The position numbers and the translations under genes were made by a program. Under the pieces are notes generated by a model. That model had not been told where the DNA came from. It saw only the letters and a list, made by a program, of their open reading frames with translations, and did not search any database. From an uncultured Planctomycetota bacterium (lineage in GTDB: Bacteria > Planctomycetota > Planctomycetia > Isosphaerales > Isosphaeraceae), in the NCBI GenBank assembly GCA_963823665.1, contig CAWGMQ010000011.1, forward strand, positions 576,001-640,000: a stretch of 64,000 nt of DNA. The letters run 5' to 3'. Below, in pieces: positions 131 to 8,148 of this stretch; position 1 is the first letter of the stretch; each line of letters begins with the position of its first letter.

Positions 131-325
131 GGGGATTCCAGACACCCATCCTTTAGTCACGGTCCCCCGAATCCATTCATTCGCGGCTCGCTCGTTCGGC
201 GCAAAATCACGGCCTCTGGTCAAGTCGAACACGCAGAAGGCGAGTGCCCGACGCTCGCCAAAACGTGGGCGTCTAACATCCCGACATCCCCGACGCTCGG
301 CAAACGGTGGGTGTCTGACATCCCC
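131..325 (+). repeat. MITE/REPIN-like element, copy 1 (empty). The core is 131-282, followed by a duplicated right end.
   Basis: It begins GGGGATTCCAGACACCCATC and ends GGTGGGTGTCTGACATCCCC, a ~20-bp imperfect terminal inverted repeat. By manual alignment it matches the reverse complement of 3484-3625 plus 4359-4366 with about 20 differences over ~150 nt. Confidence 0.85.
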
Positions 326-541: not shown

Positions 542-2134
542 ATGAGATGTCGACGGCAAGTCCCCGCGCTGGTCGTGCCCCTGGCGTGCCTCGTCGCCTG
601 GGGGGTCTCCCGAGTAGGACTCGCCCGAAGCGATGATCTCCCCGGCCGGAAGCCGGAGGCCCCGGCCGCCAGGGCCGAGCGGCGGGCCGACCTGGGCGCG
701 ATGGCCTGGACGACGGCCGTCGAGCCCAACGCGCTGAGCCCAAGCGTGAAGAACGGCCTCGACTGGCTGGTTGCGCATCAACTCTCGAGCGGCGGCTGGG
801 GCGAGGGCGACGCGATGATGCAGGCGGGCGCGACCCTCCGAGGCGTCTCGATCCGCGACACGCCCAATGTTGCCGACACGTGTATCGCTTCCCTCGCCCT
901 GATCCGATCGGGGAGCACGCCGCGCGAGGGGCCGTATCGCGGCGCGATCGTCAAGGGCGTCGGGTACGTCACCACCCAGGTCCGGGAATCCGACGCCGGG
1001 TCGCTCTCGGTAACGAGCGCGCGCGGGACGCGCGACCAGATGAAGCTCGGGCCCAACATCGACACTTACCTGGCTTCCATGCTCTTGGCCGAGGTGAAGG
1101 GGCGCATGCCCGACGAGGCGAGCAAGAGCGCCGTCGACCAGGCCCTGGACAAGGTGATCGGCAAGATCGAGCGGCACCTGGCGGGGGATGGCCCGTTCGA
1201 GTTCCAGGGGTATGCACCGGTCCTGGCGCTGGCCATGTCCGCCAAGGGGCTCAATCGCGCGCGCCAGGCCGGGGTGCGCGTCTCGGACGTCGCCCTGGCC
1301 CGGGCGGCGGACGCCGCGCGGATGGCCTACACGACCGGAGGCTGGCCGGTGGCGTACCAGATGGCAGGCCGGTCGATGGCGATCGGTCATGCACGTACGG
1401 GCCACAAGCCATCGACGCGGCCGAGGGCGACGGACGGCGTGGGGTCGGCGGCCGAGGGGTCGAGCCGGTCGATGGCGGCGGGTGTGGACGACGAGGATGA
1501 CGACCTCCGGACGGAACCTTCGGCGGGCAGCCCGGCATCCCCATCGCACGGGACCAGGAGGATGACGAAACGCGGGGCGGCGAGGCCCGGCACGGGTGCC
1601 GGCCGTCCGATGATGACAGGCATGGCGGCTGGGTCCCCGCTCTACGGCTGGTCCGCCTGCCTCGGCATCCTGCAAGATTCCCTCAATACGGGCAGGGCGC
1701 AGCTCCCGCGGCTCCGCGACCAGGCGGCCCATTCCCGGGACCCGCAGGAGTGCGCCCAGGCCAGAAAGAAGCTCGCACGGATCGCCGAGGTGGAGCAGGT
1801 CCAGCGGGGGGCCCAGGCGGCCGTCGTCGCGCGGCTGGGTGGCCCAGGATTCCTCCTCTTCGCCGGCATGGACGGCGGCGAGGAATTCCTCAGCTACATG
1901 ACCCTCGCCGAGAGCCTGGCCGTCACGGGCGACGAGGCGTGGAGGCGCTGGGATTCCGGGATGACCGACTACCTCAACCGGGTGCAGAACGCCGACGGGA
2001 GCTGGTCCGGCAGCCATTGCATCACGGGCCGCACCTTCTGCACCTCGGCGGCGCTCCTGACCTTGATGGCCGACCGCACCCCGGTCCCCGTCCCCGTCCC
2101 GGCCCGGGCGAAGACCTCGTCCTCCTCCCAATGA
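542..2134 (+). CDS. Secreted prenyltransferase/squalene-oxidase(cyclase)-repeat protein
   Basis: Signal-peptide-like N-terminus. QW-type repeats GLDWLVAHQLSSGGWG and YLNRVQNADGSWSG, followed by HCITGRTFCTSAALLTL. Confidence 0.75.
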   Translation: MRCRRQVPALVVPLACLVAWGVSRVGLARSDDLPGRKPEAPAARAERRADLGAMAWTTAVEPNALSPSVKNGLDWLVAHQLSSGGWGEGDAMMQAGATLRGVSIRDTPNVADTCIASLALIRSGSTPREGPYRGAIVKGVGYVTTQVRESDAGSLSVTSARGTRDQMKLGPNIDTYLASMLLAEVKGRMPDEASKSAVDQALDKVIGKIERHLAGDGPFEFQGYAPVLALAMSAKGLNRARQAGVRVSDVALARAADAARMAYTTGGWPVAYQMAGRSMAIGHARTGHKPSTRPRATDGVGSAAEGSSRSMAAGVDDEDDDLRTEPSAGSPASPSHGTRRMTKRGAARPGTGAGRPMMTGMAAGSPLYGWSACLGILQDSLNTGRAQLPRLRDQAAHSRDPQECAQARKKLARIAEVEQVQRGAQAAVVARLGGPGFLLFAGMDGGEEFLSYMTLAESLAVTGDEAWRRWDSGMTDYLNRVQNADGSWSGSHCITGRTFCTSAALLTLMADRTPVPVPVPARAKTSSSSQ

Positions 2135-2141
2135 GCCTGCC

Positions 2142-3367
2142 ATGGAGCCCCATCTGATCCGGCCCGGTCGCCGAGTCGCGGCGCTGATCGTGGTCTCGCT
2201 GGCGACCTGGCTGGCCTCGTGCCGCCCGCGAAGCGAGGCCCCCGGCGCCCGGGTCGACCGGGCGCTGGGCCGTGCGTTGCGATCGCTTATTGTCGCCCAG
2301 TCCCCCGACGGGGCCTGGCGATCGTCGACCTACGGCGTGTTCAAGGACGGCTTGTCGCTGACACCCACGGTGCTGAAGGCAGTCGCGTTCGGGCCGGACG
2401 TCGACGGTTCCGCGATGGCAAGGCGCCGCGCGGCCGGGTACCTGATCGGGTGCGTCAGGGCCGACGGCTCGATCGACGGCGGCCGGTTCGGCATGACCTA
2501 TCCGGTCTACAACGCCTCGGCCGCGGTGATCACGCTGACGGTCCTCGATGTCCCGGAGGGCCGCGGGCGCGCGACGCCTGGCTCCGCGAGCTGCGCCGGC
2601 GGCAATCGACCGAGGTCCTCGGATGGGGGCCCGGCGATCCGGCGTTCGGCGGATGGGGCTACTCGATCGAGCCGCCGTCGCGGGGAGATGCGGCCCTCGC
2701 CCCGGGCCAGCATGTAGACGCCGACCTCTCCTCGACCTTGTTCGCGATCGGAGCCTTGCGGATCGCCGGGGTGGAGGCCGAAGATCCCGCGATCCGCAAG
2801 GCCTTGACCTTCGTCGAGCGGTGCCAGAACGTCGCGGCGGGCGATGAGGGGAGCGATCCGCGATTCGATGACGGGGGCTTCTTCTTCACGACGACCGACC
2901 CGGTGCGCAACAAGGCCGGCGTCGCGGGCATGGATCGGCACGGCTGGACGCGCTACCACTCCTATGGCAGCGCGACGGCCGACGGGCTGAGAGCCCTGCT
3001 GCGTTGCGGCCTCGCCAGGGATCATCCGCGGGTCGCCGCCGCAAGGAAGTGGCTGGAGGCGAATTTCTCGCCCTCGACCAATCCCGGCACGTTCGAGCCA
3101 GCCCGCGAGTCCGACCGCGACGCCACGTATTTCTACTACGCGTGGTCGGTCGCCCACGCCTTCCGCGGCCTGGGGATCGCGGAGATCGAGTGCGACGGCC
3201 GCAGGATCGCCTGGGCCGAAGTCCTCGCGACCGAACTCGTCCGCAGGCAGCGCGACGACGGGAGCTGGGCTAACCGGTTCACTGCGTCCAAGGAAGATGA
3301 CCCCCTCGTCGCGACACCCTTCGCGGCCGGGGCACTCGGCATCTGTCGGACGTTCCTCGCCCGATGA
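2142..3367 (+). CDS. Prenyltransferase/squalene-cyclase-repeat protein, probable lipoprotein, frameshifted near 2560
   Basis: ORFs 2142-2717 and 2219-3367 join. QW-type repeats AQSPDGAW, RADGSI, FGGWGY, FVERCQN, DGGFFF and RQRDDGSW. Lipobox-like WLASC. Confidence 0.7.
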
Positions 3368-3438
3368 ATCCCATTGAGCGCCGACCGGACACCACCCGTG
3401 AATTCACACTGACAACTCAAAGTATTCATGAATATTAA

Positions 3439-3625
3439 GGGATGTCAGACACCCACCTTTGGGATGTCAGACACCCACCTTTGGGGATGTCAGACACCCA
3501 CCTTTTGCCGGGCGTCGGACACGCGCCTTCTGCGTGTTCGAAATGACCGGGGGCCGTGGTCTTGCGCCGAACTTGCGAGCCGCGAATGAATGGATGCCGG
3601 GGCCGTGACAAAAAGATGGGTGTCT
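3439..3625 (-). repeat. MITE/REPIN-like element, copy 2. Inverted relative to copy 1 and interrupted by the intron; its last 8 nt lie at 4359-4366.
   Basis: Homologous to 131-282. One end is triplicated as GGGATGTCAGACACCCACCTTT (3439-3460, 3461-3482, 3484-3505). Confidence 0.85.
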
Positions 3626-4358
3626 TTGCGTCAGGAAAAGCTCGAGAAAGGAGGAAGTGCCTCGAAACACAGAAACCTTTCATCGCGACCCTGCGGGTTA
3701 ACGAATCCCGCCCGGCAGAGCCTGGCCGGCAGCCGGAAGCAAGTCTTGCGTGGGGAGGGGTGACCCTCACTGCGAAGCGTAGACAGCGAGTCTCCATGCC
3801 ATGCTATCGAGCCCCGAAATACTCATCGTGGGAGCCTCCGTTGTAGACACAAGCGGGGGCCGTGTCGACACGCCGCAATGGCCTGGCGTGTTCGGTCCTG
3901 CCGGGGTCCAAGAACATGGCGCAGGGACGCGAGGGTTGCTCGGGAACCTGAGAGCCCCATCCGTCTCCACTGACATTTCCGGCTCGGGAACCGGAATACC
4001 AACTCCCCGGCCCACGACCCCGCGTCGGGTCGCTGGGAGCGAACAAGACGCAAGGGTGGTATCGCCAAACGAAGGCAACGAAGTGCGGCGAAATGGGCGG
4101 ACGGGAGTCGGAGTGCTCCGTAGTAGCAGTGAAGCGGGGGAATGGGCCCTCCCAGACCCTGTGGAGCGAAGGGGGTACCGTGTCGCGGACTGGAAGCCGG
4201 AACCACGCCGAGGGCATTGGACCTCAGAGCGCGTCACCGCGAGGCGACCAGATCGTGAGAGGGACAGCGACGCCGCGACATGACGAGCCGGATGCCTTAA
4301 TTGGGCACGTCCGGATCAGTGGGAGCCCTGGCGGAGCGATCCGCCAGGGCGACCCGGC
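3626..4358 (+). mobile_element. ORF-less group II intron (ribozyme only, 733 nt)
   Basis: 5' end TTGCG. EBS1 AGACAC (3845-3850) sits in a stem-loop. DIII-like GAAGCGGGGGAA...CCCTGTGGAGCGAAGG. A short DIV is closed by GTGTCGCGG/CCGCGACAT (4180-4281). DV is GAGCCGGATGCCTTAATTGGGCACGTCCGGATC (4285-4317) with the AGC triad and AC bulge. The DVI hairpin has a bulged A at 4352. Removing the intron restores GATGGGTGTCT|GGAATCCC, as seen in the empty copy. Confidence 0.92.
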
Positions 4359-4366
4359 GGAATCCC

Positions 4367-4584
4367 GTGACACCTATCTCGTCGTCGACGCTCTGATCAA
4401 GGCGAACAAGGACTTCGATCTGATCATCATTCCCAACGCCGGCCACGCGTACGGCAGCGCATCGAACTATGTGGTGCGGCGCCGCTGGGACTATTTCGTC
4501 CGGGGGTTGCTGGGCGCCGAGCCGCCGAAGGAGTACCTGGTGAAAGCGGGCGGCGGTGGTCGTGGGGGGCGCGCGAATGACTGA
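4367..4584 (+). pseudogene. C-terminal fragment of an S9 (DPP IV-like/prolyl oligopeptidase) peptidase
   Basis: TYLVVDALIKANKDFDLIIIPNAGHAYG...RRRWDYFVRGLLGAEPP is the typical S9B C-terminus with the catalytic His. There is no upstream part or start codon. Confidence 0.75.
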
Positions 4585-4704
4585 CCCGAGACTCACGATC
4601 CACGATGGCGCACCTCTTGGAGCGTCGACGACTCTATCGGAGGCGGGTGCACACAACCGACAACCGCAGGGTCTATCACGGGAATTGAGGCCGCGGCGCC
4701 GCCG

Positions 4705-7700
4705 TTATCGTTTGGCGGCGGCGGGTTGGCCTACTCGCACGCGAACAGGGAATGGCGGACGGGCTGGAGGCTTGGGCGGCGGGCTTTTCTCGAGCTCCGC
4801 CAGGATCTCCTCGATCGCCCGGTCAAGCTGCGGATCTTTGCCGGCGGCCACGAGCGCCGGGTCTTGCTCGACGTCGATATCGGGTGGAACGCCGACGTTT
4901 TCGACGACCCAGCCGTCCTCGGTGAAGATCGCCAGGTCGGGCGCCGTCACCATTCCGCCATCCATGAGCACCGGGAAGCCGAGAATTCCCACCAGCCCGC
5001 CCCACGTCTTCTTGCCGACCAGCTTTCCCAGGCCAAACTTACGGAACATCCAGGGGAACAAGTCGCCGCCCGATCCGGCGGTCTCGTCGATGATCATCAC
5101 CTTGGGACCCGAGGATTGCCGCGTTCGGCGTGCGGATCGTCTCGCCGTAACGCGTGGCCCAGTAGCTGACCAGTGGCCTACGAAGTAGGTCGATGTAATA
5201 GTCCGCGACCTGGCCGCCGCCGTTGAACCTTTCGTCGACAATGATGGCTTCCTTGCCGGCTTGCGGGAAGAAATAACGCTTGAAGTACTCATGGCCCGAC
5301 CCGGCGGTGTTCGGCACGTAGACATAAGCGACGCGTCCGCCCGTGCGTTCGTGAACTTTGCGCAGATTGCCTTCGACCCAGGCGCGGTTGCGAAGCGAAC
5401 GTTCGTCGCCGATGGGTTCGACCACCACCGTGCGTGCGTTCGACCCGTCCGCATTTGGACCGACCTTGAGCTCGATTCGCTTGCCCGCGGTTCCTTCGAA
5501 CGCGCGATAGACCTCGCTGTCGGCCTTGATCTCCTTGCCGTCGACGGCCAGGAGGAAGTCGCCAGGCTTGACGTCGACGCCCGGTGCCGCGAGCGGCGCG
5601 CGCAGGCTCGTGTCCCAGTAGGCGCCACCGTAGATCGTCTTGAACCGGAATCGGCCGTCCTGCACGTCGTAATCGGCGCCGAGCAGGCCGACGGGCACCG
5701 GCTTGGGCTCATAGATGTGTTCTCCGCCACCCGAGAAGCTGTGGCCGACCGACAGCTCACTGAGCATCATGCGAATCACGCGATTCAAGTCGTCTCTGGT
5801 CGCCAAGTGGGGAATGAACGCCTCGTATTTGCTCCAGACGGCGTTCCAGTCCGCGCCGTGCATGTTCGTGGCGTAGAAGTAGTCGCGGTTGATCCGCCAG
5901 GCTTCGCGCAGAATCTGCGGCCATTCCGAGCGTGGCTCGACCCGCACGGAGATCGCGGCGAGCGGAAGCGCTCCGTCGCCCTTGTTGAATTTGCCCGCGT
6001 CGACGATACCGAGCGAGGGCGGTCCGGAAGGAAGTCCATCAGGACCGGCAGGCAAGGACGTCCACAGAATCTTCTTGCTTGTCCGCGGAAATTTGAAATT
6101 CGTCGATTCCTTCGGCGAGCGTTTCTTCCTCGCGCTTCTTGAGATCGAATCGCCTCAGCGATGGCTTGCCACGTAATGTCGGCCCGGCGCGTGTAATAAA
6201 TCTGTCCGTCGGTTCCGGACGCCAGGTTGGCAATAAGCCCCGACTCGGCCGGCAAAGCCACGACCCGGGCCGAGATGCCGTCAACGTCGACGACGGTGGG
6301 AGGCGAGGGTTTTGCCTTCAGCTCAGACATTCGCTTATTGAACGCGCTCGTGAAGGTGTCACCATCACCTTCGGTCCCGGGCTTCCCTTCGACTTTCTCC
6401 TTCTCGTTGGATTTCTCGTCTTTGCCTTTTTCATCCTTCGTCTTCTCGTCAGCCGGCTTCTTCTCGGCGTCGGCGGCCCCTTCCTCGTCGCTCTCCTTGA
6501 GGAGCGGGTTCGGCGTCGCCTTGGCCAGCGTGACCAGGTAGATCGTCGACGTCACAAGCATGTCGGTGTTCGACTGATCGAACCAGTTGTTCACCGGGCC
6601 GGCGTCGGTCGAGGCCAGGAAATAGAGGTACTTGCCGTTGTGGTCGAACGTCGGTTCACCGGCCTCGGCGAGCCCGTCGGTGATGCCCGTCGATTTGTCA
6701 TTCTCGACGGAGTAGAGCCAGATCTGCTGGAAGCCGGCGCGATTGGTGAGGGAGTACGCCAGCCACTTCGAGTCGGCAGACCAGTCGTAATTGGTGCGCG
6801 CGGTGCGTCTCGGTCCGTAGATCGGCTCGGCGGCGATGCGCTTGACTTTCCCGCTTTCGAGGTCGATCCAGAAGAGGGTGCGAGAGTTGTCGATCATGGC
6901 GATCTTCTTGCTGTCGGGCGGACCACACCAGTCCCTCGTAGAACCCGGAGCCGGGTATTGGAAAAGACTTGCCGTCGCCCTTGCCGTCCTGCGGGCGAAT
7001 GACGAGCTGGTACTCACCGGTCGCGTCGGACAGGTAAGCGATCGACTTGCCGTCGGGCGACCAGGCGGGGTGGCGTTCGTGCGCGCCGGGCGTCTGTGTG
7101 AGGTTGCGCGGGTCACCCTTCTTGGCTGGCACTGTGACGATCTCGCCGCGATAGCCGAGTACGGCACGGTTGCCGCCGGGTGAAATCGATGCGCCCGAAT
7201 GTGCTTGGGATCGCTCGCAAATCGCGGCCGGGTCTCGGTCGAGGTCGGCTGCCACGAAATCTTGAGCCGGTGCGATTGCCGCTCGTGCGGGTCGAACAGA
7301 TAGACCCAGTCCGCCTTGCTCGTAGATCAGTTTTCCCGCACCCGAAGACGCGCTGGCCATCGGAAAAGCATCATGATCTGTGCATCGGGCAACGGTCTTG
7401 GCGGCGAGGTCATAGGAATAGACGTTGAACTCACCGTCACGATCGGAAAGGAAGTAGACGGTCTCGCCGATCCACATCGGCTCGGTGTCGTTGCAACCTG
7501 CCGGGGGCTTGGGAATCTCCACGTGCGACAGGTCATCCAGTTTCAAGACCCAGATCCGCGACACGGTTCCGCCGCGGTAGTTCTTCCACTGCCTGAAGTT
7601 TTCCGCAGAGCGGCGTGTACGCCAGGATACTTTCCATCCGGAGAGATCGCCCCTTTTTCGCCGTTCGGAACAGGCAGACGCTCCGGCACTCCGCCTTTGA

Positions 7701-8148
7701 TATCAACCACGAAGAACTGCGAATAGCGCCGCGAGAAAACCGCCCGCTGAGAGCTGAAGATGACCTTGCCGCCGGGGGTGAAGCCGCGAACGACGTCCTC
7801 GCCCGGGTGCCAGGTAAGGCGAACCGGCTCGCCCCCATCGGCGGGGATGACATAAACATCGGCGTTTCCATCGTAACTGCCCGTGAACGCGATGTGCTTT
7901 CCGTCCGGAGAAAAGTAAGGGTGCTGCTCGGATCCTGAGTGAGAGGTGACTCGTCGTGGGTTCGAGCCATCCGGCCCGGCCACCCAGATGTCATCGCCGT
8001 AGACGAACGCGATCTTTCCATCGGTGATCGCCGGCGCCGCCAGCAGGCGCGTGTCGCCGGTCTCGACCGCAGCCGCGCGAATCGGTGCGACCGCCAGGGC
8101 AATTGTTATTAACATCATGATCAACCGATTCCGCAATTGACGCGCCAT
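4705..8148 (-). CDS. Tricorn protease homolog (S41 peptidase with PD40 beta-propellers and PDZ), split by several frameshifts
   Basis: Successive ORFs give a signal peptide, PD40 repeats (FSPDGKHIAF, WSPDGKSIAY), SELSVGHS, IIVDERFNGGGQVADY and the catalytic GSGGDLFPWMF...GKKTWGGLVGI. Confidence 0.9.

Follow-up and report, generated by a model that had tools for sequence, protein, structure and literature searches.

A mosaic group II intron without a reading frame that probably spreads among the ends of a small planctomycete repeat

How does a group II intron that encodes no protein come to occupy the end of a small non-coding repeat, and from what was such an intron assembled? The question is raised by an element at positions 3626-4358 of a 64,000-nt stretch from an uncultured planctomycete of the family Isosphaeraceae (assembly GCA_963823665.1, contig CAWGMQ010000011.1, positions 576,001 to 640,000; hereafter the window), which an earlier interpretation made from the letters alone (the sequence-only reading) had described as a complete intron lacking an open reading frame (ORF). 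We conclude, with a probability of about 0.78, that it spreads actively as a non-autonomous group II intron of class E, targets repeat ends and combines parts of a reverse transcriptase (RT)-bearing sister intron with parts of an ORF-less lineage. The sequence-only reading lacked the mosaic origin, a second ORF-less family on the opposite strand (family B) and a nested invader. The parts of the intron, with its domains abbreviated DI to DVI, are the following.

3626-4358, plus strand: ORF-less class E group II intron, complete, 733 nt, RNA ends UUGCG ... CCCGGC (from RF02005, genomic copies and folds)
3631-3951, plus strand: DI, 99-100% identical to the RT sister; profile match to RF02005 over 3702-3916 (138 bits); closing stem, 3631-3635 with 3947-3951, read by eye
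3823-3828, plus strand: exon-binding site 2 (EBS2), UCAUCG, pairing with intron-binding site 2 (IBS2) at 3614-3619; 5-6 of 6 pairs at 20 of 21 sites
3845-3850, plus strand: EBS1, AGACAC, pairing with IBS1, GTGTCT, at 3620-3625; 6 of 6 pairs at 20 of 21 sites
3909, plus strand: probable EBS3 (C), pairing with the +1 G at 4359; G at 18 of 20 sites
3952-4112, plus strand: DII and the joiner J2/3, holding the crossover between sister type and ORF-less lineage at about 4025-4115
4113-4282, plus strand: DIII (4113-4177) and DIV (4179-4282), of the cross-genus ORF-less lineage; degenerate Shine-Dalgarno sequence and start codon
4285-4358, plus strand: DV (4285-4317), the joiner J5/6 and DVI; A at 4318 where invaded copies have T; bulged A at 4352

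Profiles, folds and compensatory changes together identify a six-domain group II ribozyme with an AGC triad and a 5-nt loop in DV and a bulged A in DVI. DV and DVI take the canonical fold (z = -5.7), and in the 3' half 32 of 71 pairs show compensatory change that preserves the fold (against 0 of 500 shuffles); minimum free energy folding of the whole intron is uninformative (z -1.7). The proposal that all domains are present with DV and DVI intact thus stands. The covariance models it called for gave a divided answer, with a clear match to the group II DI model RF02005 but only 28 bits for RF00029 on a 111-nt piece (cut-off 40) and no RF00029 match either at the gathering score or in an E-value scan of 1.2 kb. 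DIV was said to be about 100 nt long with no RT remnant. The length is right (about 104 nt), but a degenerate ORF start is kept: DIV aligns at ~59% with the Shine-Dalgarno sequence, start codon and first ~20 codons of the RT sister, with ACG at 4205-4207 where the sister has ATG.

A search of the genome for further copies, in which the best 40 of 84 candidates were scored so that counts are lower bounds, gave at least 13 full ORF-less copies alignable over nt 1-733 at 97-100% identity and one more cut at nt 699, making 14 ORF-less copies found. It also gave at least six RT-bearing sisters, whose similarity covers nt 1-547 and resumes near the 3' end, as expected of an ORF-less intron served in trans by an intron-encoded protein (IEP). 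Their RT ORF lacks an endonuclease domain and is intact, at 450 aa, in two of the six. All ORF-less copies and RT sisters begin TTGCG and end CCCGGC and each has different flanks, which fixes the boundaries at 3626 and 4358, exactly as first drawn. The rejoined flanks equal an uninterrupted sequence on the minus strand at 150-132, also as first noticed. The element is real and, to judge by its sequence, recently mobile.

The intron is a mosaic, with DI and DII from a local RT-bearing family and DIII and DIV from an ORF-less lineage found across genera. Identity to the RT sister is 99-100% over nt 1-400 and then 96, 88, 64 and 59% in successive windows; identity to family B is 58-76% over nt 1-450 and 84, 86 and 72% over nt 451-600. 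The sister is uniformly 78-92% like an RT intron from another genome (G014) along its length and thus looks non-mosaic, which makes it the likely donor of DI. The DIII-DIV module is matched in 34 of 120 other genomes of the family, and the module-bearing introns that could be delimited are 646-750 nt long and ORF-less, with varied EBS1 sequences and matching targets. In a tree of DIII-DIV (nt 485-625; 41 introns), 16 of 18 ORF-less rows form one clade with support 100/99. In a tree of DI-DII (nt 1-440; 41 introns), the ORF-less rows are scattered among RT introns and the label needs 12 changes, like shuffles. Approximately unbiased (AU) tests reject congruent groupings (p 5e-6, 6e-5 and 9e-4), the pair from G003 included. 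Module type also follows length, with RT-type DIII-DIV in 37 of 37 long introns and the ORF-less type in 15 of 17 short ones.

A simpler origin would be a deletion derivative of the local RT intron, as in Thermosynechococcus elongatus, whose DIII-DIV then diverged fast. Such an origin would explain the 99% identity of DI-DII to the sister and the degenerate ORF start in DIV, and two relatives (G014 and G022) are of this type. However, in DIII-DIV the intron stands closer to family B and to ORF-less introns from other genera than it does to the sister; an AU test rejects its grouping with the sister (p-AU 6e-5), and identity falls as a step rather than a gradient. The trees and AU tests have already largely refuted a deletion origin, and we rate it as very improbable; descent of the whole intron from a co-resident RT intron, the mark of the TeI3 type of T. 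elongatus, was not found. It could also be that there was no single capture event and that continual gene conversion among the many genomic copies homogenises DI of co-resident ORF-less and RT introns, with DIII-DIV kept distinct through selection for its own protein-binding needs. Two introns with patchy DII variants and an apparently later switch point (L012 and L013), together with some DI variants common to ORF-less and RT copies, would fit such conversion, but family B has not been homogenised with the present family (family A) in the same genome, and the uniform sister looks like a donor. We regard conversion as doubtful and retain the mosaic of two lineages.

What does the intron recognise? 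EBS1, EBS2 and EBS3 pair with G(A/G)TGGGTGTCT before the insertion point and G after it, in the terminal palindrome of a repeat of ~151 bp. Across 80 introns with 34 distinct EBS1 sequences, EBS1 and IBS1 covary, pairing at 91% of positions (shuffles: mean 42%, maximum 58%), and EBS3, readable in 21 of the 80 rows, pairs in 18. The repeat lies directly upstream at 12 of 21 intron 5' ends; with two further qualifying sites (one diverged copy, one tandem unit), 14 of 21 stand at a repeat end or duplicated terminal unit, and the remaining 7 are solo or variant palindromes. The 10-mer target is not enriched in the window (5 found, 3.7 expected); genome-wide it is, with 41 exact occurrences and 151 by a looser pattern plus one mismatch, compared with 0 in reversed controls. 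Family B, about 73% identical and with EBS1 UGUCUG, targets the same palindrome on the opposite strand. It keeps the usual register of the clade, whereas family A, like its closest relatives in DI, uses the other strand.

These sites bear on two further alternatives. If the intron were not homing itself, a transposase or segmental duplication could copy repeat-plus-intron units at the DNA level, and indeed most intron copies lie in the repeat and the repeats are clustered. Yet almost identical introns are found in repeat copies that share only about 80-90% of their sequence, at either repeat end, in tandem units and at 7 solo sites, always with different flanks. DNA copying is already contradicted by these observations, and we give it hardly any credence. 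Recognition of the target partly as a DNA hairpin, in the manner of class C introns and in addition to base pairing, is somewhat less remote but still improbable. The 3' exon consensus does reach beyond +1, and the whole repeat folds end to end at -25.6 kcal/mol as DNA; against this, the local palindrome folds weakly (-0.9 and -2.3 kcal/mol), EBS1, EBS2 and EBS3 pair fully, and the 151-bp body is absent at 7 sites. Class IIC introns are without EBS2 and read a hairpin (PMC3753933, PMC12584367). Class C introns, which use terminators and attC sites, resemble the present intron in specialising on a repeated intergenic feature; they differ in that this one has full EBS1-3 pairing. We keep to homing guided by base pairing as our reading of the repeat-end target.

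Several other arrangements were seen at these and related targets. Tandem introns lie one 24-34-nt repeat unit apart in G000, as if each duplicated unit had been filled, and a similar pair occurs in G051 (loci L063:6546-8035, L057 and L223 in all). Sub-families L171, L172, L174 and L176, and L092 and L124-L127, target an A-run then G, or ACGAAG, which shows that the clade reaches beyond terminal repeats. At the repeat, what looked like two more intron families (L054:8738 and L067:7252) proved on reading not to be introns.

We assign the intron to class E because the IEP of its sister lies near class E RTs, DV has a 5-nt loop and the endonuclease domain is absent. Two plasmid IEPs (H10 and H14) with 53% identity to the sister RT are given as class E in the supplement of Miura 2022, which is nearest-neighbour evidence from two of the top 30 plasmid matches. 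Among genome records, the best RT relatives come mostly from Planctomycetota, which points to a probable planctomycete host. The DV loop fits classes E and F (PMC3753933), and class F was set aside given the class E plasmid relatives. As described by Nagy et al. 2013 (PMC3753933) and Toro 2013 (PMC3552965), class E introns share the 5-nt DV loop, EBS1 and EBS2, and an RT without endonuclease, but end G...AY where this one ends U...GC; terminal-repeat palindrome targets and abundant ORF-less satellites also set the present introns apart from known class E. The first and penultimate bases covary in 72 delimited introns (57 pyrimidine/G, 15 G/A).

Several observations weigh against our reading. 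The DV-DVI tree is poorly resolved and its label needs 6 changes, the DIII-DIV alignment has 143 columns, and 8 ORF-less rows of the trees came from searching with the DIII-DIV module itself, so that part of the DIII-DIV clade is ascertained. Only two same-genome pairs of ORF-less and RT introns (G000 and G003) show the swap, and in G014 and G022 the ORF-less introns are simple deletion derivatives. Of the six sister RT frames, four are broken, perhaps by assembly indels. Lastly, RNA metatranscriptome contigs cover parts of DI, DII and DV with no exon junction, and they cannot separate the ORF-less form from the RT sister. One locus of uncertain form, L213 (G073, four identical matches), is a multi-copy ORF-less module whose 5' half, possibly truncated or replaced, is not recognised by the DI profile.

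How might the intron move? The sequence-only reading proposed a non-autonomous retroelement parasitising a small DNA repeat, which is borne out by the 14 ORF-less copies, an RT sister with the same DI and target, the EBS-IBS pairing and at least 40 repeats; the RT-encoding intron that it proposed to look for elsewhere in the genome exists in the form of the six sisters. Under the mechanism we propose, the intron would be transcribed by read-through (both upstream genes lie on the same strand), spliced, and then bound in trans by the endonuclease-less 450-aa RT of the sister. The intron RNA would reverse-splice into a repeat end and be reverse-transcribed. A crossover in the conserved DII, by homologous recombination or RT template switching, could have given the old ORF-less back half the targeting domain of the sister, and the repeats would offer the intron a safe and renewable supply of intergenic sites to land in. 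For T. elongatus it is established that ORF-less introns are mobilised in trans (PMC2882425).

A parasite of these parasites is also present. Seven identical 2420-nt introns with RT and HNH domains (L031-L037) all lie at the DV/DVI junction of class E introns, and the EBS2 (AGAUCC) and EBS1 (UUCCCA) predicted for them by eye match that junction. Junctions with a matching IBS2 are invaded in 7 of 9 cases and those without it in 0 of 15, in copies that are not independent; the Fisher p of 0.0025 is for 4 of 6 versus 0 of 15 and covers 4 of the 7 invaded rows. All 13 full ORF-less copies of family A have A at 4318, where invaded copies have T, and 0 of the 13 are invaded, so A4318 may explain why they are intact. 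Since copies are not independent and the same A occurs in ORF-less relatives from other genera, selection for escape is only a possibility. The nested introns likewise start U and end GC.

A broader account seems to us evenly balanced between being right and wrong. It would have an old, self-perpetuating ORF-less satellite lineage in Planctomycetes, whose back half repeatedly captures DI from co-resident class E RT introns, gaining target specificity and RT compatibility, and which colonises transposase-associated terminal repeats on both strands; here, family A would also escape the DV/DVI invader by one base change opposite its EBS2.

What, then, is the host repeat? Its parts in the window, and the gene fragment joined to it, are as follows.

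3484-3625, plus strand: host repeat, left part up to the insertion point; its terminal inverted repeats pair
4359-4366, plus strand: last 8 bp of the host repeat (3' exon), rejoining with the left flank
3439-3483, minus strand: two tandem extra copies of the terminal 22-mer of the repeat, empty target sites
132-325, minus strand: empty repeat copy (132-282) and duplicated terminal unit (283-325); exact empty site at 150-132
4369-4617, plus strand: joined directly to the repeat end, a 3' fragment of an S9 peptidase gene; it matches the end of a longer copy (G000:C6:379756) at 94% identity

The repeat is 148-156 bp long, non-coding and present in at least 40 copies whose ends pair with each other (best 40 of 104 candidates scored). 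Among 40 relatives searched, it was found only in a same-genus genome. It had been labelled as resembling a miniature inverted-repeat transposable element (MITE) or a REPIN, a pair of repetitive extragenic palindromic (REP) sequences, and this label is only a resemblance. The repeat is short, non-coding and multi-copy with terminal inverted repeats, as in MITEs, and has two inverted short repeats with a spacer, as in REPINs. On the other hand, 0 of 13 complete copies have a target-site duplication of more than 2 bp, the strong REP hairpin with a GTAG or GTGG foot is absent (local fold -0.9 to -2.3 kcal/mol), and 0 of 22 Y1-transposase loci in G000 and G001, both incomplete genomes, are bounded on both sides by the repeat, 2 of them having it at a truncated 3' end. 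Tobes and Pareja are said to have described, in 2006, insertion sequence (IS) elements that target REP sequences; there too a small extragenic repeat is the landing site of a mobile element, but those are DNA transposons and the present one an RNA-guided retroelement.

The motif GGGGWSAS defines the terminal inverted repeats (TIRs) of TIRYT Y1 transposases (Di Nocera 2013, PMC3733652; Quentin 2018, PMC6006769, subclass 2.1). The ligated exons of U- or C-start introns read it on the opposite strand in 28 of 57 cases (its reverse complement exactly in 13, with one mismatch in 15), compared with 0 of 15 G-start introns within three mismatches; the counts cover introns with both ends, and kin among them are not independent. 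The present repeat differs, its core GGTGTCTG being two mismatches from the consensus, and a Y1 gene bounded on both sides by it was not found; among the Y1 loci of G000 and G001 no cognate transposase was identified. GGGGWSAS-like motifs do lie just upstream of several Y1 genes in both genomes, and two Y1 transposase genes stop abruptly at a repeat copy or end (L078:1340-1470; L075 near 1214). The parts of PMC3733652 and PMC6006769 that we used do not mention introns.

The repeats occur in clusters, 28 of 40 lying within 20 kb of another copy, for example at G000:C11:551000-580000, C6:910000-923000, C11:696000-718000 and C5:458000-465000, and likewise in G001; adjacent repeats are co-oriented in 18 of 20 pairs in G000 and 11 of 11 in G001. 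Between clustered repeats lie toxin-antitoxin genes (PIN, ParD and Gp49-like/HTH), a GNAT and hypothetical genes. This arrangement could reflect strand bias or a cassette-like capture system. An integron attC array is not supported: the 76 ORFs of six cluster regions include no integrase family, and cargo occurs on both strands. The longer copy of the S9 peptidase gene is on a different contig, which suggests that repeat ends are places of capture or rearrangement. Within the window, two prenyltransferase/squalene-cyclase-fold genes (542-3367 and 4705-8148) lie between repeats; the second of these genes appears frameshifted, as does a tricorn-like protease gene downstream (identified by eye), and assembly errors may be the cause. 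At 3409-3448 there are two divergent matches to sigma-70-like promoters, one with a hexamer from the terminal unit of the repeat.

Among the closest known systems are the TeI3 introns and twintrons of T. elongatus, where, according to Mohr et al. 2010 (PMC2882425), ORF-less copies likewise outnumber RT copies, EBS differ by family, twintrons occur and the driver RT is demonstrated to act in trans, as it would here. TeI3 differs in stemming from one deletion within one genome and in belonging to class CL/IIB1, whereas here the ORF-less half is common across genera, is joined to different DI types and has a dispersed small repeat as its target. Bacterial ORF-less introns are, according to a standard review (PMC4424553), rare and short-lived derivatives of a local RT intron. 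Our literature search, which left most subscription papers outside, found neither a report of group II introns that home into REP, TIR or MITE repeats nor one of ORF-less lineages that swap DI.

The interest of the locus lies in the repeat-end target and above all in a cross-genus ORF-less module with swapped targeting domains. Counts of the ORF-less lineage run low, as its DV/DVI fails to reach the Rfam cut-off. The locus is also a compact test system, with one RT, two satellite families on opposite strands of a palindrome, and a hyperparasite with a one-base difference in susceptibility. If our reading is true, an ORF-less lineage that swaps its targeting domain across genera would represent, among group II introns, the equivalent of MITEs or short interspersed nuclear elements, and new targets would become accessible by a natural route that needs no stepwise mutation of the EBS.
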